Source: Octopus vulgaris
Lineage: Eukaryota
Direction of reading: 5' to 3'
NCBI GenBank assembly: GCA_951406725.2
Contig: OX597833.1
Span: forward strand, 47,306,001-47,370,000
DNA length: 64,000 nucleotides
Positions within the stretch are counted from its first letter, which is position 1; every line of letters begins with the position of its first letter. The notes beneath the pieces are model-generated. The model searched no databases and was not told the origin of the DNA. It was given only the letters and a program-made list of their open reading frames with translations. The translations under genes were made by a program, and so were the position numbers. Of the stretch, positions 1,087 to 63,706 are shown piece after piece.

Positions 1087-4000
1087 ACTTGTCCTCGTAC
1101 TAAATACTTATGCTATTATTATCATTGATTAACAGACTGAAGTGACAATAAGTAGAATGATTAACAAAATGCTAAACAGTATTTAGTTACATTACTTAAA
1201 TTCTGAGTTCAGTTCCTAGTGAGGTCAGTGTAACTTTTCATTCTTGAGAGAAGGAGTACAGGTCAGGTCAGGTGTTCAAGTGATCTCTAAGGGCTCTGGA
1301 CTGTGTCCAAGTCTCGCAGTTGTAGAGCAAGATGGGAAGAACCAGAGATCTGAAGACCTGCACCTGTGTCCTCATGCAAATTATGAGAACCAGTTCAGCA
1401 TCCAGATTAAAGGCCTTGTGAGTATGTGTTTTGGCTTTTTGTGCTCCAAGGTGAAACTTAGTTTTTTTGTCCTTTCTGACCCATTAAAGTACCAGACCAG
1501 GACATTGGACCTTGTAGTAGACTATAAAAAAAAAAAAAAGAAATAGCATAGACCTTAAGAAAGAGTTTACATCATTCTTCTTAATCCTTTAACTCCACTT
1601 GAGCGCCAACAAGAGATCTTCATCTATCTCAATGTTTGGTAATGGGTTACAGCTTCCTTTTGACTTTCACTATGTTGCTTCATATGCAGTCTCTGAAAAC
1701 TACCTCCCCTTAACAGAATTAGTTTTCATCTGTCCTCTCATTGGTGTTTCAGTAACAGCGTAGAAAAGATAGTACAGGGCTGCTAACTCTGTGCCCATCA
1801 CCCTCCTTTCTCAACCAGGCTAGGAACTGCCTATGGCAAAATTATTTGCGTCATTGTTACAGGCAATTTAAGCTGAGGTCACAAAGTACTCAAAAGAGCT
1901 ATGGTGCTGGTGGCAGCACTGGATTCAATTTATGCAACTATAACACTCCTCACAAATTTGTGTCTTTGTGCCTCTATTAAAATTCATTTATTATCATTCC
2001 AGGGGAGTGGCAGGAAGGGTGAAATGCTCAGTTAAATACCTTACGAGTTGCTCAAACATTTTTTGCAAATTAGCACCAATGGTTCAAATGAGTTTGTCAT
2101 ATGTACACCTTGATACCATGTCATCCCATCTCACTTGTGAGGCCTAATCTGTGAAGACCTGATCTAACTTAACTTGTCTCAATATCTAACATTGTAAACA
2201 CTTTTCTATACTATTAACATACAGAAAAAAGAAGATAGGAGAGCAGTGACAAATCATTACACTGTTGGCCACTCCTCAGAGAATCCTAGCTTCCTTTCCC
2301 AACCAGTAGCACAAATCAGCTGCTTTATAAAGCAATCACAAATTAGGATAGCTTAATTTATATATTTTGGTAGCTTGACCCTTTAGCATTTAAACCGGAC
2401 ACACATAACCTGCAATGTCATTCTAAAATTAAACAGTTTCGTCACTGAAATCTTGAAGCTACAAAATAATGCACGAATAATTAAAGACAATGTGAATAAA
2501 TAAGCATAACAACCTGCAGATTCATTTCTCATGTTGTACCATGTTCCTACATAGCCGAAGACCACAGTGGACACTTCAATAAGCAGTGATGAGTCATGGT
2601 ATGCAGTGTGTTCGTCTGTACATGTTGCACCCTTTCCAGTGTCTATTCCATTATTTTTTCTCCCAGCAGATTCTCTTGATAGCTACAGGGGAGGTGGGTT
2701 CAGTGAACTTGATCAGTACATAATAATTGCTGTACCTCTACCAGTTATTAGTGAATTGGTGATGTGCGCGATTGATAATACAGCCTTTTCTATATGTATG
2801 GGTTTTGTGTTTGTTGGGGTCAAGTGAGAGATATGATGTTATTAGTATACTATCGTTGTAGTTTTCTGGAATTTTTGGAGAAGATTTTCATGAAGTGATG
2901 GGAATTGTGGGATATTGAAATGAGACTGCCCCACTTTGTCCTGGTGGTCTGTGTATGATAATACATCACACAGTTTTGTGTATTTTGTAGTTTACTGTGG
3001 TTTTATGGAGAAATCGAGGATCTGTGCATTTTGTCTATGGTGGATCTAATGTATTATTCACTTAAGCCCCTCACTCCCTGAGGAGCAAAGGGCATCAATG
3101 GTTTTTCTCTACTGGTATCGATTCTGGACTGTTTTCCTCTCACAGGTTTCGGGTTTTGAATTGTCATTGATACTTCTGAGTGAGATAGGAAGAAGACAGA
3201 CTTAAACAAAACCTTGTGAGAACAGACAAATCCTTTGGGATGAGGTGGTCTATATTAGTCTGGCCACTATCCTTTGGCCTGTCCTGCATAAGTCTCTACC
3301 AGGGCTTGTGCTCTGCTGACACATTGCAGAATCATTGAGGCATATAAGCCACAGCAAGGATTGAACCTTGTAGCAGATCTAATCTATTGTTTATACATTA
3401 TTGTTATTTATTTTTTGTGGTTTTAGGCAGTTTTATTTGGCTCTCTTTACTGTTTTCTATGAAAGGTGCTGAAAAGTTCCTGGTTTTAAGGGTATTGCGA
3501 AAGACCTGGTTGGAGGCCCAACTGAGTTCTTTTATGGGGCTTGGAAAATCTGAAGGACCATTGCAATAACTGTGAATATGAGAAGAGAATATGTTGAATC
3601 AAAGCTTAATTAACTGATCCTCCTGTATTTTCTTTTACCCAAAGCAAGGAACTTTTCAGCACCCCCTCATGCATGTTGTGAATGCTGTGGGGTTGTATGT
3701 GATTTATAGTATTTTTGCTTTCTCTGTATGTGTACGTATGTAGTGTGAGGTTGTTGACTGTATTTGATATTCACTGGTATTACTGTGAAAAGGAAGACTG
3801 GATTCAGATCCAGGATTTTATGTGATACTGTGTTTTGAGTTGTGGAAAGGTCATGAAGGTACAGATTAGAAAGAGTGGGTGAGAAAATGGGTTTGTGTGG
3901 TGATCCATTTGAAGCATGATATATGGTCAAAGCAGAAGGATACTTTTTCTACATCTTTCTGAATTCAAATCTCACTCATCAGTTCGAACTTTTATCCGGC

Positions 4001-4229
4001 AGGGTCTATAAATTACATGAAAAAAACCCATCTAGATCCTTTAACTCCATATGGAGTATAGAGCATCAACAAGATATTGTCATCTATCTTGATCATTGGC
4101 AATGGATTGCATTGTTCTCCATTGTAGCTGCCTGTCAGTGCTTCAGTTTCTGTGAACCTTCTCTTGTTGTCTTTGGTCTGCTGTGCTTGATTCTCCCTTA
4201 AGTTGTCCATTCAAGGTCTTACCTTATAA

Positions 4230-4860
4230 TCATCATCAACATTATCATTTAATGTCTGCTTTCCATGCTGGCATATGTTGGACAGTTTGACATGGAGCTG
4301 GCTATCAAAGCTGTCCCAGACTCCAATTGGCATGGTTTCTATGGTTGGATGCCCTTCTTAACACCAATCACTTAACAGAGTGTACTGGGTGCTTTTTACA
4401 TGTCACTGGCACAGGTGCGTCTACGCAACACTGACAGTGATGCATTAACGCAGTACTGGCATGAGTGCTTTTTGAGTGGCACCAGCACTCGAAAGGACAA
4501 GCCTGTTTGTGTAGAAGACAGCAATTTTGCTTAGCTTGACACATCTTACCAAGTACAGCAAATCACCACATCTCCCGGTCCCTTGTCATTTCCTCAGTAA
4601 GGACCAGTGTCCAAAGATCCTTTCTCACCCCATCCCACGTCTTCCTGGGTCTACCCCTTCTACAGGTACCCTCCACAATTAGAGCTTGGCACTTCTTTAT
4701 GCAGCTGTCCTCATTCATACACATCACATGACCAAACCAGCACAGTCTTCTCTCTTGTACACAACATCTGGTACCGTTTATACCTAGTTTTCCTCTTAAA
4801 TCATTTACGCTCTGTCATGCATGCACTCTGACATTACTCACCCAGTGGAGCATGTTGGAA
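4230..4860 (-). mobile_element. Older RTE LINE 3' fragment
   Basis: Similar to 34830-35980 (GRPRKTW-like segment at ~4630-4660; CAT-repeat tail at ~4230). Confidence 0.75.
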
Positions 4861-6423
4861 TTAAATTTCTGTAGGGTGTGTCCCATCCAATGCCATTTGT
4901 TCCTTTTCATCTGGATGTCAGTAGGTTTCTGATTTGTCTGTTCTCACAAGGTTTTAAGTCTGTCTTCTTCCTATCTCACTCAGAGGATGTTCCAGAGACA
5001 GAGACATCTATTCACAAACATTTAGAGTTTGCATGAAAAAAGCATAACGACTGTTGATTCTCTACAAATTATTGGCCTTGCGTCCAGTGAAAAGAACTCG
5101 ATAATATTTTATTAGATGCCAGTAGTTATGTAATTAGTATATTCCGTAGTCTATAATGTGTGAAGAGGCAAAAATGACCAACTAGATTACGTATTGAGCT
5201 ATCAGTTAGTGATTTATTTCCTGTTTAGCTAATCTAGACAGTTCACTGAATCTGTGAGAAGGTCATAGAAATTTCTACATACTTTAGGTCAATTAGTTAC
5301 TGTGAATCAACAGATTTTCCAGTCTCTCATCTAGCTTTATGGAATCCTGTAGTTTGCAAAAAGATTTAAGTATGCAAGTGTCTGGTGTTTTTTTGTTTTT
5401 TTTTTCTTTTTCTCTTCACAGTGTTTCTGTAAAATGCTCATTATTAAAGCTTCTTAAGCCCCCCCCTCCCAATATTTTATCCGATAAATCTAAATATGTT
5501 GTATTGTATTTTGTGTATTGAAATCAGTTTTCCAGTGTTATTTAGGCTTACAGAAAGAAATTGCTTTTTTCATATATCTTCATCACTGGATTTAATTATT
5601 GTTATTCAGCATTTGGTTAGCATTGATCCACCTCATCTTTTTGTGTATCTGGGACTTCATTGTTCAGTATGTCCTTCCTTTTTTTTTTTTTTTTTTTATG
5701 GTAGTTGGTTGTGATTTAACGGAAATTTGGTTGCTATTTCTAGCTGGCCAAATGACCTCATAGAGGTTCCCCTTGTTAAAATTGATTGGATGTAGATGTG
5801 TTCTGGTTTGATGTTAATGCTTTGTTATTTACAAGTAGTTTGGGCAGTGACTGCAGGGTTTCTTTCTATCAGTTGAACTGAGAGAATATTTAAGTTGTCT
5901 AGTCTACATGCTTACCTTGATTGAGCAGACCAGCATGATCAATGATGTTCCGTCCATGACTATTCCATCTATTTTGTCTTTGGTCAGTGTATAGCGGATT
6001 AGATCATTCAACATGTCCTTCATTCCCAAGATGATAAGAGTGTTATTTGGTGGAAATGTGGCTGCCAAATCTAGCAAATTGTGAAGCCCCCTAGAGTTTC
6101 CCTCATTGATTCATGAGTTATTTAGTTTAGAGTTTATTTTAGGCATAGGCATGGCTATGGTTAAGACATTTGCTTCCCATCTATGTGGCTTTTGGTTCAA
6201 TCCCAATGCATGGTACTGTGGGCAAATGTCTGTAGCCCTGGACCAGCCAGACATACATTGTGTGTGCATGTGTATATTTCTGTGTATATGCTTGTGTCTC
6301 CTTGTCTTGACATTATATGACTGTTGTAAATGAATACCATTCATTTCCAATATTCTGTGAAGATATATCTGGCCAAGGGGGAAATATTACCTTGCTTGGA
6401 AATGGGTAAGATTTGGTAATAGG

Positions 6424-6657: not shown

Positions 6658-9169
6658 TAAGATTTGATAATAGGAAGAACATCTGACTTTAGAAAATTTG
6701 CCTTCGTAAACTCCGCAAGCATGGAAAAAATGGACATTAAACTGATGAGGGTCATGGTGGCGGTAGCGGTATTTTATGTGCATGCACAATGTTTTATGAT
6801 ATGGAGAGAATTATTATGCTGGAGGATTTGTAACTTATTAGGGTTTATGAGAGAAAGCTTTGGATTCAAGACAATATTCCATGATAATCCCTATATACTG
6901 TTTCTGGAGATGTTGCAAAAGGCAGAAGACAGGAAATATTTCATATCTGTCCTAGTAAGAGCAGGTATGGCTGTGTGGTTAAGAAGCTTGCTTCTCAATC
7001 ATGTGATGTTGGGTTCAGTCCCACTGTGCAGTGCCTTGAGTAATTATCTTCTACGATAGTTCTGGCCCGTCCAAGGCCTTGTGAGTGGATTTGGTAGGTA
7101 GGAGCTGAAAGAAGCCTGTCTTATATATCTACATATGTATGTACCTTTTGTCTAGACGCTTCATTATAGTTTTAAATGAGGATCATAATCATACAACCTA
7201 GGGTGTTTATTTCCAGCCTTCTGTGGAAAAAAAAAAAAGGCCGGCCATAAAGAAATATTATTGTACTTGAAAACAGATGAGGGTTAATGATAGAAAGGGT
7301 ATCTAGCCATAGAAAATCTACCTCAACAAATTCTGTCTTTAAGCATAGAAAAATGGATGTTAAATGATAATGATGATGGACAACAGAATGAATGAGTTTA
7401 TGTAGGTGGAAGCACTTTTAATGATTATAAACATTAAACAGCGAAAGTATATTGAGTTACATTAAAATATAAACAATAATATTAATTAATGACTCAAGTT
7501 ATTTTCATTGTGCAGATGTCACCATTCAGATATATTTTTATAGACTCAATAGTAAAATGCTGTACAGGGTAATTAGTAGCATAAGCAATTCCTATGGTAA
7601 CTACATAACATTATATGGTGTGGTAACGACTTACATCCAGGACTACTGTATGTATATATATATATGTGTGTGTGTATATATATATATATATACTGTTCAA
7701 TCTAAAGATGTCATTTTTTTTTGTTTGTTTCTTTTTTAACTTATTCTTGTCTTATTTTTTCTGTTTGTGTTTGTCTTTCATATCTGCTCATACATACCTT
7801 GGTAGCTTGTGTTGCCAGGGAATATATGATATATTATGATACCTGCCAAATTAAACAATATTATCAGGTGTCAAAATTGTGTTGATACTTGGTTGACAAC
7901 TTATGAGGGGTTGAGCAAGCCTACATCCATTGTGTGTGTGTGTGTGTGTGTTTTCCAGTTTATCTGTTTGTTCCTTTGTCATCCCCTGTACTTCCTCCTT
8001 CCATGTACCACATTTTTTATTATTGCTTTGTGAGATCATAGACTTCCACCTAGAAAGTTCCCTTTCCAAAGTGCAGACCTAGGCAGTTTTCCACAAGAGA
8101 AGAAGCAGTTGCTCATCCACGCAAATCTTGTTTCATGCCATTGAAAAGGACAAAAGCTGATACAGTTTGGTGCCAATGTTGCTGCATCTAACATCTAACA
8201 AATAGACATTCTCATTAATCATTTCAATAAAACCAGCCACCAGAAACCATTCAAAGCAGACAGAATCATAAAAATACTGCATACTTTATCTAATCAATGC
8301 ACCCCCTCCTCCGTCTCTCTCTCTCTCTCAAAAAAATCTATAAACTACGAACTCAGAAATATATACAGATGCATTAATCACATGGATCCTTAATGAGTCA
8401 TTAATAAATGTATATTCAACTGCTTATACCTAAGGCTATGAGTAATAATAAAGGTAACATCGCAATTTTACACCAAAGCAGTCAATGAAGAGAAAATTGT
8501 TGATGGCAGATTCTTGGTGAATAGCCACAGTTTACATTAAATTTATCACAGATTCACTGCCAATCTTAGGTTGACCTTTGGTACTGCAATCTTCTTGTGT
8601 TGCTTAACATGCAAGAAATAGCACCCGGATCTCTCTCCTCACACCCTACAGGGTTACAAAAAAGGAATGACATTGGATAATGTAGACCTAGAGACATCTG
8701 AACACAATAAGCTGGTGTGGTCATGACTGGACCACCTTTGAAGTAGGTTTGTTTCAATAAAGTTAGCCTAGGATTAAACAACAGCACGACCACCATTTCC
8801 ACCATACAAAACTGAAGTAACTATAACAATATATTTTATTCGACATCTCTTATCTTTCTCATTGTACGGCAAAATCCAATGAAAAGCTTTTCTTTAATCC
8901 TTTTGTGACCATATTTCTGTTGCAATACATTATTTTTCTTTCAGTTAATTTCTAAAATAATGAAGAATACAATAAAACAGCCTCATTATTCATCATCATC
9001 ATTAACATCTGTTTTCCATGCTGGCATGCGTCGGACAGTTTGACAGGAACTGGCCAGCTCTAATTGTCTGTTTTGGTATGGTTTCCCCAGCTGGATGCCT
9101 CTAAGTTGATATTTCAAGTGGTTGGCATTAGGAAGGGCATCCAGTTGTAGAGACATTGTTGAAACAGAC

Positions 9170-9898
9170 ATAGAGCTGGCTCCATTAGCCACTACTGCCT
9201 GACTTCTATCTTTTAGAAAGTCGTGTAACCACTTTCCAAATTTTCCAGCTATGCCGAGACCACACACTTTGTGGCATATCATACCATGATCCACTTTGTC
9301 AAAAGCTCTTGCAAAATCAAAGTATATTACATCCACATTTGAGTTGTTGAGTAACTGCCTCAACACCCAGTCATGATGTTGTAAGAGCTAGGCCAGGCAG
9401 CTCCTACCTGGTCGAAAGCCATGCTGGGTATCACTCAGCAAGTTATTTTCTTCAAGGAATGCGATTACTTTCCATCTGACTATCCGTTCCATCACTTTGC
9501 TGATGTGTGAAGTCAGAGAGATAGGCCTATAGTTCTTGGCATCTGCTCTGCTTCCTCCTTTTTGGATTGGGCATATTATTCCCTCCTTCAGCTTGCTTGG
9601 CAGTCTGCTATTTGCAAGAAAGCTCTAGAAGAGAATCTGGAAGGGTTTTGCCAGGACATGCTTACACGATTTGAGGAGGATTGCTGGGAAACCATCAGGA
9701 CCAGCAGTTGAGTTTGCTGTCCACCTCATCTGTGGCTAGTAGTATATCTTCTTCGCTAATGTCGATGTATTCCATCGTAACTGCCTTGCTGGTTATAGGT
9801 GAGGTGGCAAAGAAGTCCACTGATTCATTCACTTGTCTGTTTTCCAACGAGGTGGTAAAGACACTTTTGAACTGGTCATTCACTACCTCACTGATCCC
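9170..9898 (-). mobile_element. CR1/Jockey-group LINE reverse transcriptase fragment (decayed)
   Basis: Minus-strand translation gives NDQFKSVFT, YRPISLTSHISKVMERIV, QHGFRPGRSC, VDVIYFDFARAFDKVDH, WLHDFLKDRSQ. Confidence 0.9.
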
Positions 9899-32981: not shown

Positions 32982-34829
32982 TTCAGAAGCAGGTTATTTG
33001 GTTGATCAAAAAGCCCAACCAATACTACATGTTCCACTATATTATTGTTGTTTAAATTATTTGAATATGAATGTAGGTATTTTAATTTGATGTCAAAGCT
33101 ATTTACTCAGCCATGAAGGGTACATTTATATTTCTGTACTACCACTGTATTCCAATTTTATTTAACAAGGATGTATGCATGGCTGTACAGTTAAGAAGTT
33201 TGCTTTGCAACCATGTGGTTCTGAGTTCAATCTTATTGCGCAGCACCTTGGGCAGGCGAGCAGTGTCCTCTACTATTGTTTTGGCTTAATAAGTACTTTA
33301 TGCATGAAAATAGGTAGATTGAAACTGTTTTAACTTTTCAGCATTCAAACTGGCCATATCCGGCCAAAATATTTAACCTGTTTTATATTGAAACTGACCA
33401 GAGCTTGCCTCTCACCTCAGCCCTACCGTGTCATTCTAAAACTAAAAAATCACATCACTGAAATCTCTAAACTACAAGATAATGCATGATTAATTCAAAA
33501 CAATATAAATAAACAAATATCACATTTTACAGAATAATCTGAACACTAAAGGGTTAAAGCCTATCAAATATGTATCTGTATTTAATCTATCCCTTTCTCT
33601 CTATATATGCATGTGTATGTACATACATACACATCTGTCTATCTATATATATCATCATCATCGTTTAACGTCCGCTTTCCATGCTAGCATGGGTTGGACG
33701 GTTCAACTGGGGGTCTGGGAAGCCCGAAGGCTGCATCAGGCCAGTCAGATCTGGCAGTGTTTCTACAGCTGGATGCCCTTCCTAATGCCAACCACTCCGT
33801 GAGTGTAGTGGGTGCTTTTTACATGCCACCGACAGAGATGCCGGTGGATATATATATATAGAACAAATAGTGAGGGATTATCAATCCAGGCAAAATACTC
33901 CACACCAGGCTAACAATATTACAAACTATAACTAATAGTGACAAACTATAAGTAATCCTTTGGTAGGGTCCCAAGTTGAGGCTCATCACAATTCTACATT
34001 GTAGATCCATGGATGGGCTTCAGATAAACTAGTTTTTACAGAGTGATATTTAAGAAGCAAGTTTAAAATAATGGTCATTACATATTATTCATTTATTAGA
34101 TTAAACTTGGCTTGCGGCTGTTTCCAGTAGCTATTATAGGTACATTATTAATAGGTTTACTCAGTTGGGGTAAATTGGACAATCTAAGAAAATTAATACT
34201 ACTTTCATTAGCTATTTCTGGAAGTAACAAGCAGAGCATATGAGGAATGGCTATTGTGTGGGGACGATGGGAGAAGATTAGGATGTTTGAGTGGAATAGA
34301 GAACAGGGAAGGCAGGTTACAAGGGGGTGGGAGTAAGTAAGGAAGTGGTACTTGGTAGTAATATAAGTACATATATATATATATATATATATACCTAAGC
34401 ACAACGCGGCTACAGTAGAAGGTAATGGCAAACTTCTGAGTCTTTTGCCACAACTTTTCCTCACTCTTTCCACCTGGATCTAGCAGCTCACATGCGACGG
34501 ACTAGCGTCCTGTCCAGGTAGGGAACTTATACGCCAAGGAAACTGGGACACCGGCCTTTATGAGCCAGGCATGGCTTGAGAAGGAACAAACAACATATAT
34601 GTATGTATGTATATATATATATATGTAATATGTATAGATGTATATATATATATGTATAGATGTGTATATATATATATATGTATGTATATGTATAGATGTA
34701 TATATATATATGTATAGATGTGTATATATATATATATGTATGTATATGTATAGATGTGTATATATATATAGATGTATGTATATATGTGTGTATATTTATA
34801 TAATATATGTGTATGTATATATGTATGTT

Positions 34830-60378: not shown

Positions 60379-60424
<46 letters not shown>

Positions 60425-60425
<1 letters not shown>

Positions 60426-60865
60426 ATAATACAAAATAAGAAAATGGAGGAATAGATTTCTTTCAATCATCAACTACTACATAATACCAATTCATATAAT
60501 ATATTAACTAATTATTTAGGAATATCCAGATCAAACAGAATAATACAGAATAAAACAGTACACATCAATAAGACGAGGCCCTGAGATATATATATAAGTA
60601 ACTTATTTTTAACTGTATATTACCTCAATACAACTGACTAATATGAGCATAATGAGATACTCTTATCTACAGGCTGAAACAGCTGTAAGATCCATTTTAT
60701 ATGTATTGTTCTTATGGTATTATCTTACTTATTGATGTGTACTGTTTTATTCTGTTTGATCTGGATATTTCTAAATAATTAGTTAATAAATTATATGAAT
60801 TGGTATTATCTAGTAGTTGATGATTGAAAGATATCTATTCCTCCATTTTCTTATTTTGTATTATG
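60425..60865. repeat. Long inverted repeat (~140-bp arms 60425-60572 and 60728-60865) around a ~155-bp spacer
   Basis: CATAATACAAAATAAGAAAATGGAGGAATAGAT...ACAGTACACATCAATAAG versus CTTATTGATGTGTACTGT...ATCTATTCCTCCATTTTCTTATTTTGTATTATG. Confidence 0.92.
60645..60692 (+). ncRNA. Degenerate hammerhead-like motif in the spacer of a long inverted repeat
   Basis: ATAATGA-GATACTCTTATCT...GAAA-CAGCTG-TA-AGAT; the same GAAACAGCTGTAAG 3' half as the 62658-62703 motif, with a decayed 5' core. Confidence 0.4.
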
Positions 60866-61065
60866 AATTTGAGGTAAAACATTTTACCTTCGCCCATATA
60901 ATACATTAAATGAATTAATTGCATTGCAATTCTTAGCATTTATGTATTAGCCTCTCTGGGTACTTTACTGGCAGTATATTGGATAAATGATATCCCATAG
61001 TGGGTTACACTCATAACCCCTATCTCACTTTGTAATATATAAAAACATAAATATATATATAATAG

Positions 61066-61400
61066 TGAAGGCACATGGCTCAGTGGTTAGAGCATCGAGA
61101 TTATGATCATGAGGTTGTGAGCTCAAATCCTGGACTGGGCTGTGTGCTGTGTTCGTGAGCAAGACACTTTATTTCACATTGCTCCAGTTCACTCAGCCGT
61201 AGAAATGTAGAAATGAGTTGCAACGTCACAGGTGCCAAGCTGTATCAGCTGTTGCCTTTCCCTTGGATAACACTGGTGGCGTGGAGAGGCGAGGCCGGTA
61301 TGCATGGGTGATTGCTGGTCTTCCATAATCAACCTTGCCTGGGAGGGTAACTTTCTAGGTGCAATCTCATGGTCAGTGTCGTGACCGAAGGGGGTCTTTC
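61066..61400 (+). mobile_element. tRNA-headed SINE family 4; related copies at 24465-24786(-), 9955-10150(+), 365-598(-), 31560-31793(-)
   Basis: TGGCTCAGTGGTTAGAGC A box; shared body TTGCTCCAGTTCACTCAGC...TTTCTAGGTGCAATC. Confidence 0.82.
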
Positions 61401-61447
61401 AGATATAAAAATATATATATAAACACACACACACATACATATATATA

Positions 61448-62370
61448 CAGGGTGTGGGGAATAAGTTGCTGTCTAAATTATGCAAAAATGAAAATAACAC
61501 TGACATCTTATTTTAACAGATATATTTACCAAAATTACATAAAAATATCTTGAAATACTAAAGAATAAATTTATTCAATAAAATCGCCATTGGCTTCAAC
61601 CACTGCTTCCAGACAACTTCAGAATCTCCTTGTTTAACTTGGTGAGAGCTGCCATAATCCTTGCCTTCAGTTCATCTTTGATGTTACAAGGAGTTTTGTT
61701 GGTCTCTTGCTCCACACATAATAACGAAAGAGGTTGCAGTCTGGGGAGTTAGGTGGCCAGATGTTAGGGATGATGTGGTCGCAGAAATTGTCTGACAGCC
61801 ATGACTGGGTTCTCCTGCTTGTGTGGCATGTTTCCAGATATAGGGTCTTCCAGCAGCCACCTTCTTCATCCGGGGCAGTGCTACCTCCTCCAGGCACTTG
61901 ATGTAGGCCTCTGTGTTGAGTCTGAGGCCAAGTGGGAAAAGCGGAGGTATAATGTCACCATCGTTAGTGATCACTCCAAGTACCATGATGTTGACTGGAT
62001 GTTTGATTTTTATCACTCATGGTATATATTTTCGGGACATGGCATGCCAACGGTTGTTCTGTGTGTTCACCATCTGATCCTGGCAGAAATTTTTCCCGTC
62101 TGAGAAAAACCAAAGCATGTTTAGTTGAAGAGGATGCTTGAGTTTGTTCAAAAGCTTCCTAGCATGGTCTTTCCTCTTGCCCTTGATAGGCTGGGAATGA
62201 AAATTGGCCCTTTCTCATCTCGTATGAGGAACATTGAATGTCTTCATGCACTACCTACCTGATAAGAAACTCACACTCCCATGTCCCTGGCAAAGGACCT
62301 GATTGACTTGGAGGGAGTGTTGTTAATCATAGCCTGGATATCACCAACAAATTCAGTTCTTTTCTTAACC
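61448..62370 (-). mobile_element. Decayed Tc1/mariner transposon (maT/DD37D-like)
   Basis: KHPVNIMVLGVITNDG, YIKCLEEV, WPPNSPDCN..YYVW, WFFSD motifs; TA-CAGGGTG terminus at 61446-61454; frameshifted. Confidence 0.88.
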
Positions 62371-62458
62371 TGGATTCATTAACGTTTTTTTGCATTCCTG
62401 GACTTCTGAGCATTTGCTTATGTCTGTGACATAGATATTTAAAAATATGTGTTCATAT

Positions 62459-62519
62459 AGAGTCTGACGAGCTGTCCTCAAGGCTTTAGCTTTGTGGGTG
62501 CAAAACCTTGGGTAACTCT
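62459..62519 (+). ncRNA. Type I hammerhead ribozyme-like motif (G12 mutated)
   Basis: AGAGT-CTGACGA-[GC...CCTCAAGGC TTTA GCTTTGTGG...GC]-AAAA-CC TTG GG-TA-ACTCT: 5-bp stem I, core box, long stem II, stem III, GUA cleavage triplet. GAAA reads AAAA, consistent with CpG decay. Confidence 0.7.
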
Positions 62520-62542
62520 TTGTCCAAGATAAAAAATTTTTG

Positions 62543-62589
<47 letters not shown>

Positions 62590-62657
62590 CAAAAACAGAT
62601 AACAAAGACAAGGCTGTGAAGAGTTTTCAGGACATTTATAAGGAAAGAGAAAGTTAG

Positions 62658-62703
62658 CCTTACAGCTGTTTCTGAAATATTAGGGATATCCCTTCATCAG
62701 AGA
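62658..62703 (-). ncRNA. Minimal type I hammerhead ribozyme-like motif
   Basis: Minus strand TCT-CTGATGA-A[GGGATAT CCCTA ATATTTC]A-GAAA-CAGCTG-TA-AGG: intact core boxes, palindromic stem III typical of Penelope-associated minimal hammerheads, 3-bp stem I. Confidence 0.7.
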
Positions 62704-62832
62704 TGATGTGAGAGAGGTAAATGTTTGTGTTTGAAGTAAGGAATTATTATGGAAAAGGAGGAGATAGGGAAATAGAGGGAAATAAGAGAATGAAAGTAGA
62801 AATAACATAAAACATTGTAGATGCAGTTCCAT

Positions 62833-63089
62833 TATTCAAGTAAAGTGGTGTATAGAAGTGGTAAAAAAGTTTCCTGTACATGGTATATAAGTTCCGATAG
62901 TAGTTCGTATTTATCATTTCAAAGTATGGAGCCATGGATTCTATATTACCCATTCAAAGGGGCTTTGTGGGCAACACAGAATCCACAGCTCCATACTTTG
63001 AAATGACTAAACACGAACTACTATTGGAACTTACATACCGTGTACAGGAAACTTTTTTTACCACTTCTATACACCACTTTACTCGAATA
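62833..63089. repeat. Fold-back palindrome, ~120-bp arms
   Basis: AGTAAAGTGGTGTATAGAAGTGGTAAAAAAGTTTCCTGTACA...TCATTTCAAAGTATGGAGC mirrored by GCTCCATACTTTGAAATGA...TGTACAGGAAACTTTTTTACCACTTCTATACACCACTTTACT. Confidence 0.93.
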
Positions 63090-63635
63090 TACACTTTAGA
63101 TGAGTTGTAGTGCACCTGAGCACTGTACACAATTATTATTATTATTATTATTATTATGGAACTGCAAGTACAATATTTTACATACAACAGACTTCTTTCA
63201 GTTTCTGTCTACTAAATCATCTCACAAGGCTTTGGTAGAAGACATCTGCCCAAGGAGCCACGCAGTGGGACTGAACCCAGACCCATATGGTTGGGAAGCA
63301 AGCCACTCAAGTATAAATTAGTAAAATAAGGTGGTGAGCTGGCAGAAATGTTAGCACGCCGAACGAAATGCGTAGCCGTATTTCGTCTGCCGTTATGTAT
63401 GTCCTGAGTTCAAATTCCACCGGGGTCGACTTTGCCTTTCATCCTTTTGGGGTCGATAAATTAAGTACCAGTTATGCACTGGGGTCGATGTAATCGACTT
63501 AATCCCTTTGTCCCCTCTGTGTTTAGCCCCTTGTGGGCAATAAAGAAATAAGTAAAATAAGATTCTATAGAATCTAGGCACATCAACATGCAGGATGCCA
63601 GAAATGGCTAGGTACAAACCCCATTTATGTTCTTT

Positions 63636-63706
<71 letters not shown>

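Follow-up and report, generated by a model that had tools for sequence, protein, structure and literature searches.

Among the Penelope-like elements (PLEs) with a C-terminal EN, the Hydra clade, in which Hydra-1_Obim from Octopus bimaculoides is included, is the described group closest to the sequences considered here (Craig et al. 2021, PMC8557442). According to the accessible text of that work, its marks are a CxCX5C linker, the absence of CCHH, a CxxC/CxH arrangement beside E/N, the RWK and DKT motifs and insertion into (TA)n. An inverted 5'-truncated copy is given there for Penelope-13_HM, and the origin of inverted and tailed PLE insertions is named as an open question. As reported in the accessible part of a study of the green anole element Poseidon_Ac (Frangieh et al. 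2024, PMC11167929), both target strands are cut and extended in vitro by a PLE protein, which starts at two RNA sites that bound the tail, and the pLTR hammerhead of this element is dispensable for in vitro insertion. Minimal type I hammerheads are known from metazoan PLEs (Cervera and de la Pena 2014, PMC4209133), where, in the text available, they are mostly single motifs from truncated PLEs, with opposite-strand pairs 100-700 bp apart. Retrozymes, as far as the description was accessible (PMC7229834), consist of short non-coding units in tandem, from which RNAs of 170-400 nt are expressed. Hydra-type PLE insertions, pLTR hammerheads and inverted partners are all described in print, and the two loci analysed here are of this known kind.

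The sequence under study (the window) comprises 64,000 nt of Octopus vulgaris DNA (GCA_951406725.2, contig OX597833.1, positions 47,306,001 to 47,370,000). A scan of the window found the 14-mer GAAACAGCTGTAAG exactly at 60676-60689 (+) and 62659-62672 (-), as well as a third match with 2 mismatches at 34111-34124, the chance expectation at up to 2 mismatches being a mean of 0.39 matches in shuffled sequences. The 14-mer consists of the conserved GAAA-helix III-UA part of the hammerhead, that is, its 3' half, and two further bases. The original prediction had seen in it a half-ribozyme occurring twice, each time tied to an inverted duplication; the 14-mer and the inversions are real, but the hammerhead of the second locus is complete, while that of the first is incomplete in this copy only, the family having the full motif. 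Both loci are 5'-truncated 3' ends of two separate high-copy PLE families, here called F1 and F2, which have RT and GIY-YIG in their longer copies. With high confidence, they can be understood as truncated insertions of two PLE families with Hydra motifs, their inversions having probably resulted from two-ended priming in (TA)n, with two fixed RNA start sites.

Locus 1 begins after a (TA)n tract at 60389-60424, the target microsatellite at the outer end of the inverted copy. It is a typical pair, with a short-ended partner on the left and a long-ended main copy on the right. The 5'-truncated partner (60425-60572, - strand, reference positions 751-884) ends at the short 3' terminus, and the main copy (60572-61035, + strand), a 5'-truncated 3' end (pLTR region) of a Hydra-type PLE with 87% identity to the 3' end of the RT- and EN-bearing copy L172, ends at the long 3' terminus, the two having a single base, G60572, in common at the junction. 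The tail between the short and long termini occupies 60866-61035 (+), and is 174 nt long in the reference copy L007. The arms, 60425-60572 and 60728-60865, agree at 134 of 138 aligned bases, with 4 mismatches and one 10-nt indel; a lower identity of 92.8% in a second comparison was depressed by the alignment around that indel.

Locus 2 lies on the opposite strand. Its main copy (62585-62970, - strand), a 5'-truncated 3' end of the second Hydra-type PLE family, ends at the short 3' terminus against a (TA)n tract at 62546-62584, and has 78% identity to the 3' ends of the EN-bearing copy L130 and of L118, which bears RT and EN. The inverted partner (62968-63180, + strand) is in two pieces, 62968-63089 and 63153-63180, since a 67-nt insert (about 63090-63156) interrupts it before it resumes for some 28 nt up to 63180. 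The arms, 62833-62952 and 62968-63089, have 110 of 120 aligned bases in common (10 mismatches, two 1-nt gaps), and the near-symmetric inner junction shows 3-4 nt of microhomology, a 15-nt loop and a 4-bp CCCA/TGGG stem. The outer end of the partner past 63180 was not found in the next 9.9 kb; a 30-nt match at 63638, considered as the rest of the partner, is TA low complexity, and the outer edge of the hairpin, considered as a recurrent F2 terminus, gave 0 matches with two patterns and is not a family end.

The extents first assigned to the loci, which closed at 60865 and 63089, were too narrow, since F1 continues to 61035 and the outer arm of locus 2 resumes at 63153-63180. The statement that both repeats start at TA tracts applies to locus 1; the hairpin of locus 2 does not start at one, the TA-flanked 3' end of the element being 248 nt away (62585). 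That the arms of the two loci are unrelated was borne out, as they have nothing in common except the 14-mer. Relative to their families, the two arms show 1 shared against 10 private departures at one of the window's loci and 2 against 10 at the other; they have therefore departed from the family mostly independently, which gives the duplications roughly the age of the insertions. F1 and F2 are oriented with their 3' ends towards one another, about 1.5 kb apart, and the TA tracts between them contain two repeats belonging to neither family. The segment at 61036-61447 contains TA-rich tracts and an interspersed repeat (61064-61405), matched in 15 of 222 loci and at 4 further places in the window, which we take to be SINE-like, whereas 61448-62545 (-) is a decayed transposase-like repeat, presumably of Tc1/mariner type to judge from its motifs, although a Pfam search with two stop-free pieces of it returned nothing. 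No match to RT or GIY-YIG was obtained anywhere in the window, as the original prediction had also stated, because both copies are truncated to less than 500 nt.

The coding sequence is found elsewhere in the genome. A first look gave 2430 genome candidates for F1 and 2938 for F2, of which 40 were scored in each case, ranked by likeness to the window copy and hence a biased sample. The copies of both families have a fixed 3' end in (TA)n and staggered 5' ends upstream, that is, they constitute a 5'-truncation series. In the F1 parent L172, RT (3775-4362) and EN (5233-5659) are followed by the counterpart of the window's F1 core (8712-9202, at 87%), so that F1 spans more than 5.4 kb in this copy, from mid-RT to the 3' end. 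RT followed by a C-terminal GIY-YIG is documented in F1 by L172, L175 and L223, and in F2 by L118, L119 and L122, the F1-linked L223 having a 705-aa stop-free RT frame with a tblastn match to P0002 at E 1e-62. In F2, the C-terminus of GIY-YIG lies about 1.4-1.5 kb from the 3' end, RT being present in L118, L119 and L122, while L118, L128, L129 and L130 have EN with the F2 core after it. Extending the hits thus yielded the parents with Penelope RT and GIY-YIG that had been proposed (L172 for F1, L118 for F2), and these are continuous with both loci, which upholds the suggested link between Penelope-like elements and the hammerheads. Nevertheless, the loci do not represent one system, as had been supposed, but two families, the RTs of F1 and F2 being 41% identical over about 300 aa.

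No intact full-length ORF was present among the F1 or F2 copies (150 scored each), the longest stop-free frames being 705 aa in the F1-linked copy and 366 aa among close F2 matches, and a complete 5' end was not recovered among the fetched copies of either family. Moreover, the number of F1 candidates fell from 2430 with the 3' end to 239 and then 46 with successive probes further upstream. The same genome also contains a third, young Hydra-type family, with at least 60 intact ORFs and a partial tandem arrangement that places a direct pLTR upstream of the ORF; since no intact full-length ORF was found for F1 or F2 and intact Hydra-type relatives are present, late copies could have moved in trans. 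As regards database searches, GIY-YIG was matched in Pfam only below the cut-off (E 0.0027), Pfam and PDB searches did not recognise the intact Hydra-type protein, and a homologue search with an F2 fragment returned a single unnamed protein.

The clade assignment was made by motifs, with the published alignment compared by eye, and on this basis F1 and F2 appear to belong to the Hydra clade, whose marks they carry. The CxCX5C linker reads CNCRIKDNC in L172 and L173 (F1) and is of the CNCRPGTIC type in L120, L125 and L127 (F2); the EN of both families is without a cysteine pair between GIY and YIG, and the motif around E/N is CSLC..E..N..CLH in F1 and CKLC..E..N..CNH in F2. DKT is found in the F1-linked L223 and in L218 (78% to the F2 RT), where WWK is also present, while RWK occurs in L215, which is 79% identical to the F1 RT and has no link here to the F1 3' end. 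Both families insert into (TA)n, as Hydra elements do. Their size departs from that of the clade, F1 exceeding 5.4 kb against less than 3 kb, a figure given in the accessible text with the word 'generally' and hence a tendency rather than a defining motif (PMC8557442). An assignment to Neptune, considered first, was dropped against the clade definitions in the same text, where Neptune and Nematis have a CX2-5CxxC linker and a CCHH motif two of whose cysteines lie between GIY and YIG, neither of which is matched by F1 or F2.

Regarding the hammerheads, full motifs were found in the fetched loci as 35 distinct F1-type and 29 distinct F2-type sequences. The complete type I motif of the F2 main copy (62657-62704, - strand; predicted cut between 62661 and 62660) keeps every core base, with CTGATGA (CUGAUGA), GAAA and GUA all present, while helices I and II are slightly decayed: helix I has 3 of 4 pairs, helix II is of 7 bp with two G-U pairs, and helix III has 3 bp and a palindromic GC loop. 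In the F1 main copy the broken type I motif (60572-60691, + strand; predicted cut after 60687) begins at G5 (60572), because the core is interrupted by the inversion junction; C3/U4 and the 5' strand of helix I have been lost, whereas G5-A9, a helix II of about 100 nt, GAAA, helix III, GUA and the 3' strand of helix I are kept. In the 35 distinct F1 sequences, 86-127 nt separate CUGANGA from GAAA, a stretch which folds into one long helix II (z -1.9 and -3.0 in two copies). The hammerhead is not the lowest-energy fold of the window copies (z 0.30 and -1.12). In each family 92% of cells are paired, but the covariation score is no better than that of shuffles, being attained by 61 of 500 and by 306 of 500 of them, so the structure is backed by the hammerhead core and by complementarity, without independent covariation. 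Rfam gave no hammerhead among the 150 matches listed of 219, the listed ones being chance microRNA-hairpin matches. An intron in the F1 hammerhead, suggested by a GT..CAG look, was considered and rejected: the one spliced junction tried had no genomic copy, an acceptor-like CAG is found in 28 of 35 sequences and is missing from a divergent subfamily, and no joint skipping the stretch was seen in the contigs of 4 runs (taken to be RNA by guess). In F1 and F2 the hammerhead is the usual motif of the pLTR, and is predicted to work only as a dimer or with the help of a protein.

In both families the copies end within (TA)n at one of two fixed 3' termini, which are 174 nt apart in F1 and about 145 nt in F2, and it is the distribution of these ends over inverted pairs that bears on how the inversions were made. 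Exact-pattern genome matches numbered 756 for the F1 short end with its adjoining TA (the reversed control gave 0), 25 for the long end and 314 for the F1 hammerhead, counts which differ in stringency and from which no ratio is to be drawn. In an unselected set, the first 30 short-ended F1 copies in genome order, an inverted partner lay within 1.5 kb of 16, and was long-ended in every one of these 16 cases; the other 14 had no partner within that distance. Conversely, 10 of 21 non-redundant long-ended F1 copies had a short-ended partner and one had a 44-nt piece not at TA, in a survey from which 9 F1 loci had been dropped as near-duplicates and 2 F2 loci as mirrors. For F2, 9 of 28 loci were flagged for inversion, which, after discounting three TA artefacts and one 45-nt piece, leaves five including that of the window; the pairs L032, L040, L047, L052 and L108 each have one long and one short end. 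In the young third family the two ends are about 70 nt apart; both ends are visible in 2 of 15 loci, and each of these two has a short-ended inverted copy with a long-ended direct one. A search of the openly accessible literature found no paper on such long/short pairing in PLEs. Both ends of an insertion lie within (TA)n, where a target site duplication cannot be read.

The outer ends of the F1 pairs are fixed, whereas inner breakpoints and arm lengths vary. Junctions were clean in 9 of the 16 F1 pairs (the other 7, L192 among them, being without a clean junction call): four have arms that do not overlap, four are near-symmetric, and in one the short arm extends 31 nt further 5'. Two-ended priming would account for these features as follows. 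The element protein would cut (TA)n on both strands; one cDNA would start at the long site and the other at the short site, one on each target strand; both would stop early, at variable points; and their inner ends would be connected, either by 0-6 nt of microhomology or with a few extra nucleotides, giving a head-to-head pair whose members differ by the tail. At locus 1 the stop would have fallen within the hammerhead core, leaving a copy expected to be inactive. The 1.5-kb distance between F1 and F2 would reflect the TA target common to both, the other repeats having landed between them later. The main competitor involves the same PLE families, but with a single cDNA which folds, is copied back and is resolved by the endonuclease at the AT-rich short site. 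It is suited to the four near-symmetric pairs, to the near-symmetric CCCA/TGGG stem and 15-nt loop of locus 2, and to locus 1, where the long arm extends further 5', as it requires; in addition, the tail is attributed to EN-mediated resolution in the accessible text of PMC8557442, and both window loci, taken alone, are compatible with it, the outer end of the locus 2 partner being lost. However, folding back demands that the arms overlap and that the long arm reach furthest 5', which is violated in five of the nine clean pairs (L180, L182, L189, L198 and L193) and, marginally, in L195 as well; in the F2 pair L040 the short arm extends further and yet the partner has the tail, and at locus 2, too, the further-reaching arm is the short-ended one. 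A single folded cDNA cannot produce those five, whereas two cDNAs from two sites, joined at their inner ends, give all nine clean junctions, and are for this reason favoured. They also agree with what is reported of a PLE protein in vitro, namely two-strand cutting and extension from two start sites (PMC11167929). As a general cause, fold-back priming, which the original prediction had invoked, gives neither long/short pairing nor arms without overlap and is unlikely, although it may lie behind some near-symmetric insertions.

Two further explanations deny that the loci are ordinary PLE copies. One of them, in line with the short self-cleaving RNAs mobilised in trans of the original prediction, would make them a non-autonomous retrozyme-like RNA, short, self-cleaving and circular, moved by PLE proteins. 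The excess of short copies over ORF-bearing ones (the 2430, 239 and 46 F1 candidates) and the failure to find an intact full-length ORF in either family would fit such an RNA; but homology is unbroken from the hammerhead to EN and RT, 5' ends are staggered and short copies grade into coding ones, so that what is seen is a truncation series of multi-kb elements. No tandem 170-400-nt monomers were found in the F1 or F2 loci examined, and two hammerheads on the same strand were present in 0 of 124 F1 loci and in 3 of 70 F2 loci, about 1.0-1.2 kb apart (overlapping loci included). A retrozyme is thus very improbable. That the loci might be MITEs or fold-back DNA transposons, with fixed TIRs and TA duplications, is hardly credible at all: the inverted arms do adjoin TA and the F1 partner has a constant outer edge, but the arms differ from copy to copy in length and in their inner edge, 14 of 30 copies, or about half, are without a partner within 1.5 kb, one arm is longer by the 174-nt tail and the parents encode RT. 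Neither fixed TIRs nor a uniform size is seen in F1 or F2. In fact, since the inner breakpoints vary between copies, the arms are not MITE TIRs, and the comparison of breakpoints bears out the earlier proposal that the inversions were made at insertion.

Two-ended priming may be carried one step further. Hydra-type PLEs might prime obligately at both ends, one dimer using one RNA with sites 145-174 nt apart, F1 representing a form with a helix II of about 100 nt which is absent from the Hydra table and from the searches; to this extension we give as much credence as doubt. If it were true, every inverted pair would be long/short, and inverted pLTRs and tails would be the product of one event. 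As a locus, the two insertions carry little weight, since both are decayed and thousands of other copies exist. On the other hand, strict long/short pairing and arms without overlap turn start sites seen in vitro into a prediction that can be counted at genome scale, which makes the families a record of mechanism, and the young Hydra-type family, with its intact ORFs and the same two-end pattern, could be assayed. In practice, the default reading of a hammerhead beside a palindrome in this genome should be a truncated PLE, not a retrozyme.

Compared with known systems, F1 and F2 resemble the animal non-LTR retrozymes in the type I hammerhead and in the link to PLE pLTRs (PMC7229834, 10.64898/2026.07.22.740005, in the parts accessible), but differ in lacking tandem 170-400-nt monomers or a fixed unit and in having coding parents. 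With the minimal hammerheads, as far as the text of PMC4209133 was available, they have in common the short palindromic helix III, the 4-bp helix I and the extra base after A9, to which F2 adds its 7-bp helix II; the extended F1 helix II of about 100 nt is not described in that text. The likeness to Poseidon_Ac consists of two fixed start sites whose spacing equals the genomic tail, the cutting and extension of both target strands, an AT-rich target and a pLTR hammerhead, while Poseidon_Ac belongs to another clade, has a tail of 30-40 bp and, in the accessible part of the paper, is not reported to use different start sites for the two arms of an inverted pair (PMC11167929). The closest resemblance is to the Hydra clade (compared with the accessible portion of PMC8557442): RT then GIY-YIG in one ORF, an inverted 5'-truncated partner, (TA)n, and a type I hammerhead whose helix II is flanked by one additional base on either side and whose helix III reads acag/ctgt, features also present in Hydra-1_aMil, Penelope-1_NV and Penelope-1_SK. 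The differences from that clade are the 3' untranslated region of about 3.5 kb in F1 and 1.4-1.5 kb in F2, where whole Hydra elements measure less than about 3 kb; an ORF with Asn-rich inserts of low complexity; longer tails, at 174 nt and about 145 nt compared with 30-40 bp in print; a helix II region of 86-127 nt in F1, where the Hydra rows of File S2 show loops no longer than 10 nt; and an RT core and hammerhead which differ by eye from those of Hydra-1_Obim. What is new, therefore, is the two families themselves, the greater length of their tails, the extended helix II in F1 and the counts that favour two-ended priming.

The Hydra-type Penelope-like family F1, one of the two families with 5'-truncated copies in the window, includes a divergent subfamily (L182, L188, L191 and L200) in which the long helix II of the hammerhead is retained and the core reads CUGAAGA; a number of substitutions in this helix compensate one another, three sequences having G-C in place of A-U. 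Long Asn-rich and Lys-run inserts were found in the F1 ORFs (L223:2874-4988, minus strand; L172; L175), located in the interval separating the RT from the thumb and ahead of the EN domain, and these are apparently in-frame microsatellite expansions. In addition, one F1 insertion recurred with its flanks, near-identical, across several small contigs (L015-L019, L025 and L027; C21, C35, C36 and C44), representing either a segmental duplication or unplaced haplotypes.

In the window itself, the TA tract separating F1 from the second family, F2, contains a decayed transposase-like repeat (61448-62545, minus strand), which was matched in 5 of the 222 loci; with the boundaries chosen for it, it is not flanked by any clear pair of TIRs. 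The outer arm of the F2 locus is interrupted by a 67-nt insert with (ATT)n at its end (63090-63156), for which no match was obtained among the other loci retrieved from the genome. A third match to the 14-mer hammerhead 3' half, with two mismatches, lies at 34111-34124 on the minus strand.

A young Hydra-type family was also identified (L156-L170, e.g. L156:1348-3528, plus strand; G000:C1:64218971-64220983), in which most of the 66 copies listed maintain a 727-aa frame without stops, with both RWK and DKT present; Pfam and PDB searches did not recognise the protein. Its hammerhead is compact, its two 3' ends are spaced by about 70 nt, and the inverted or tandem partners of its copies are 99–100% identical; the 3' ends of F1 and F2 have no DNA relationship to it. 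Further Hydra-type families occur in many places in the genome, with 50–75% identity to the F1 and F2 RTs and stop-free frames reaching 980–1090 aa, and in one such group dozens of copies share the same single TAG within the matching stretch.
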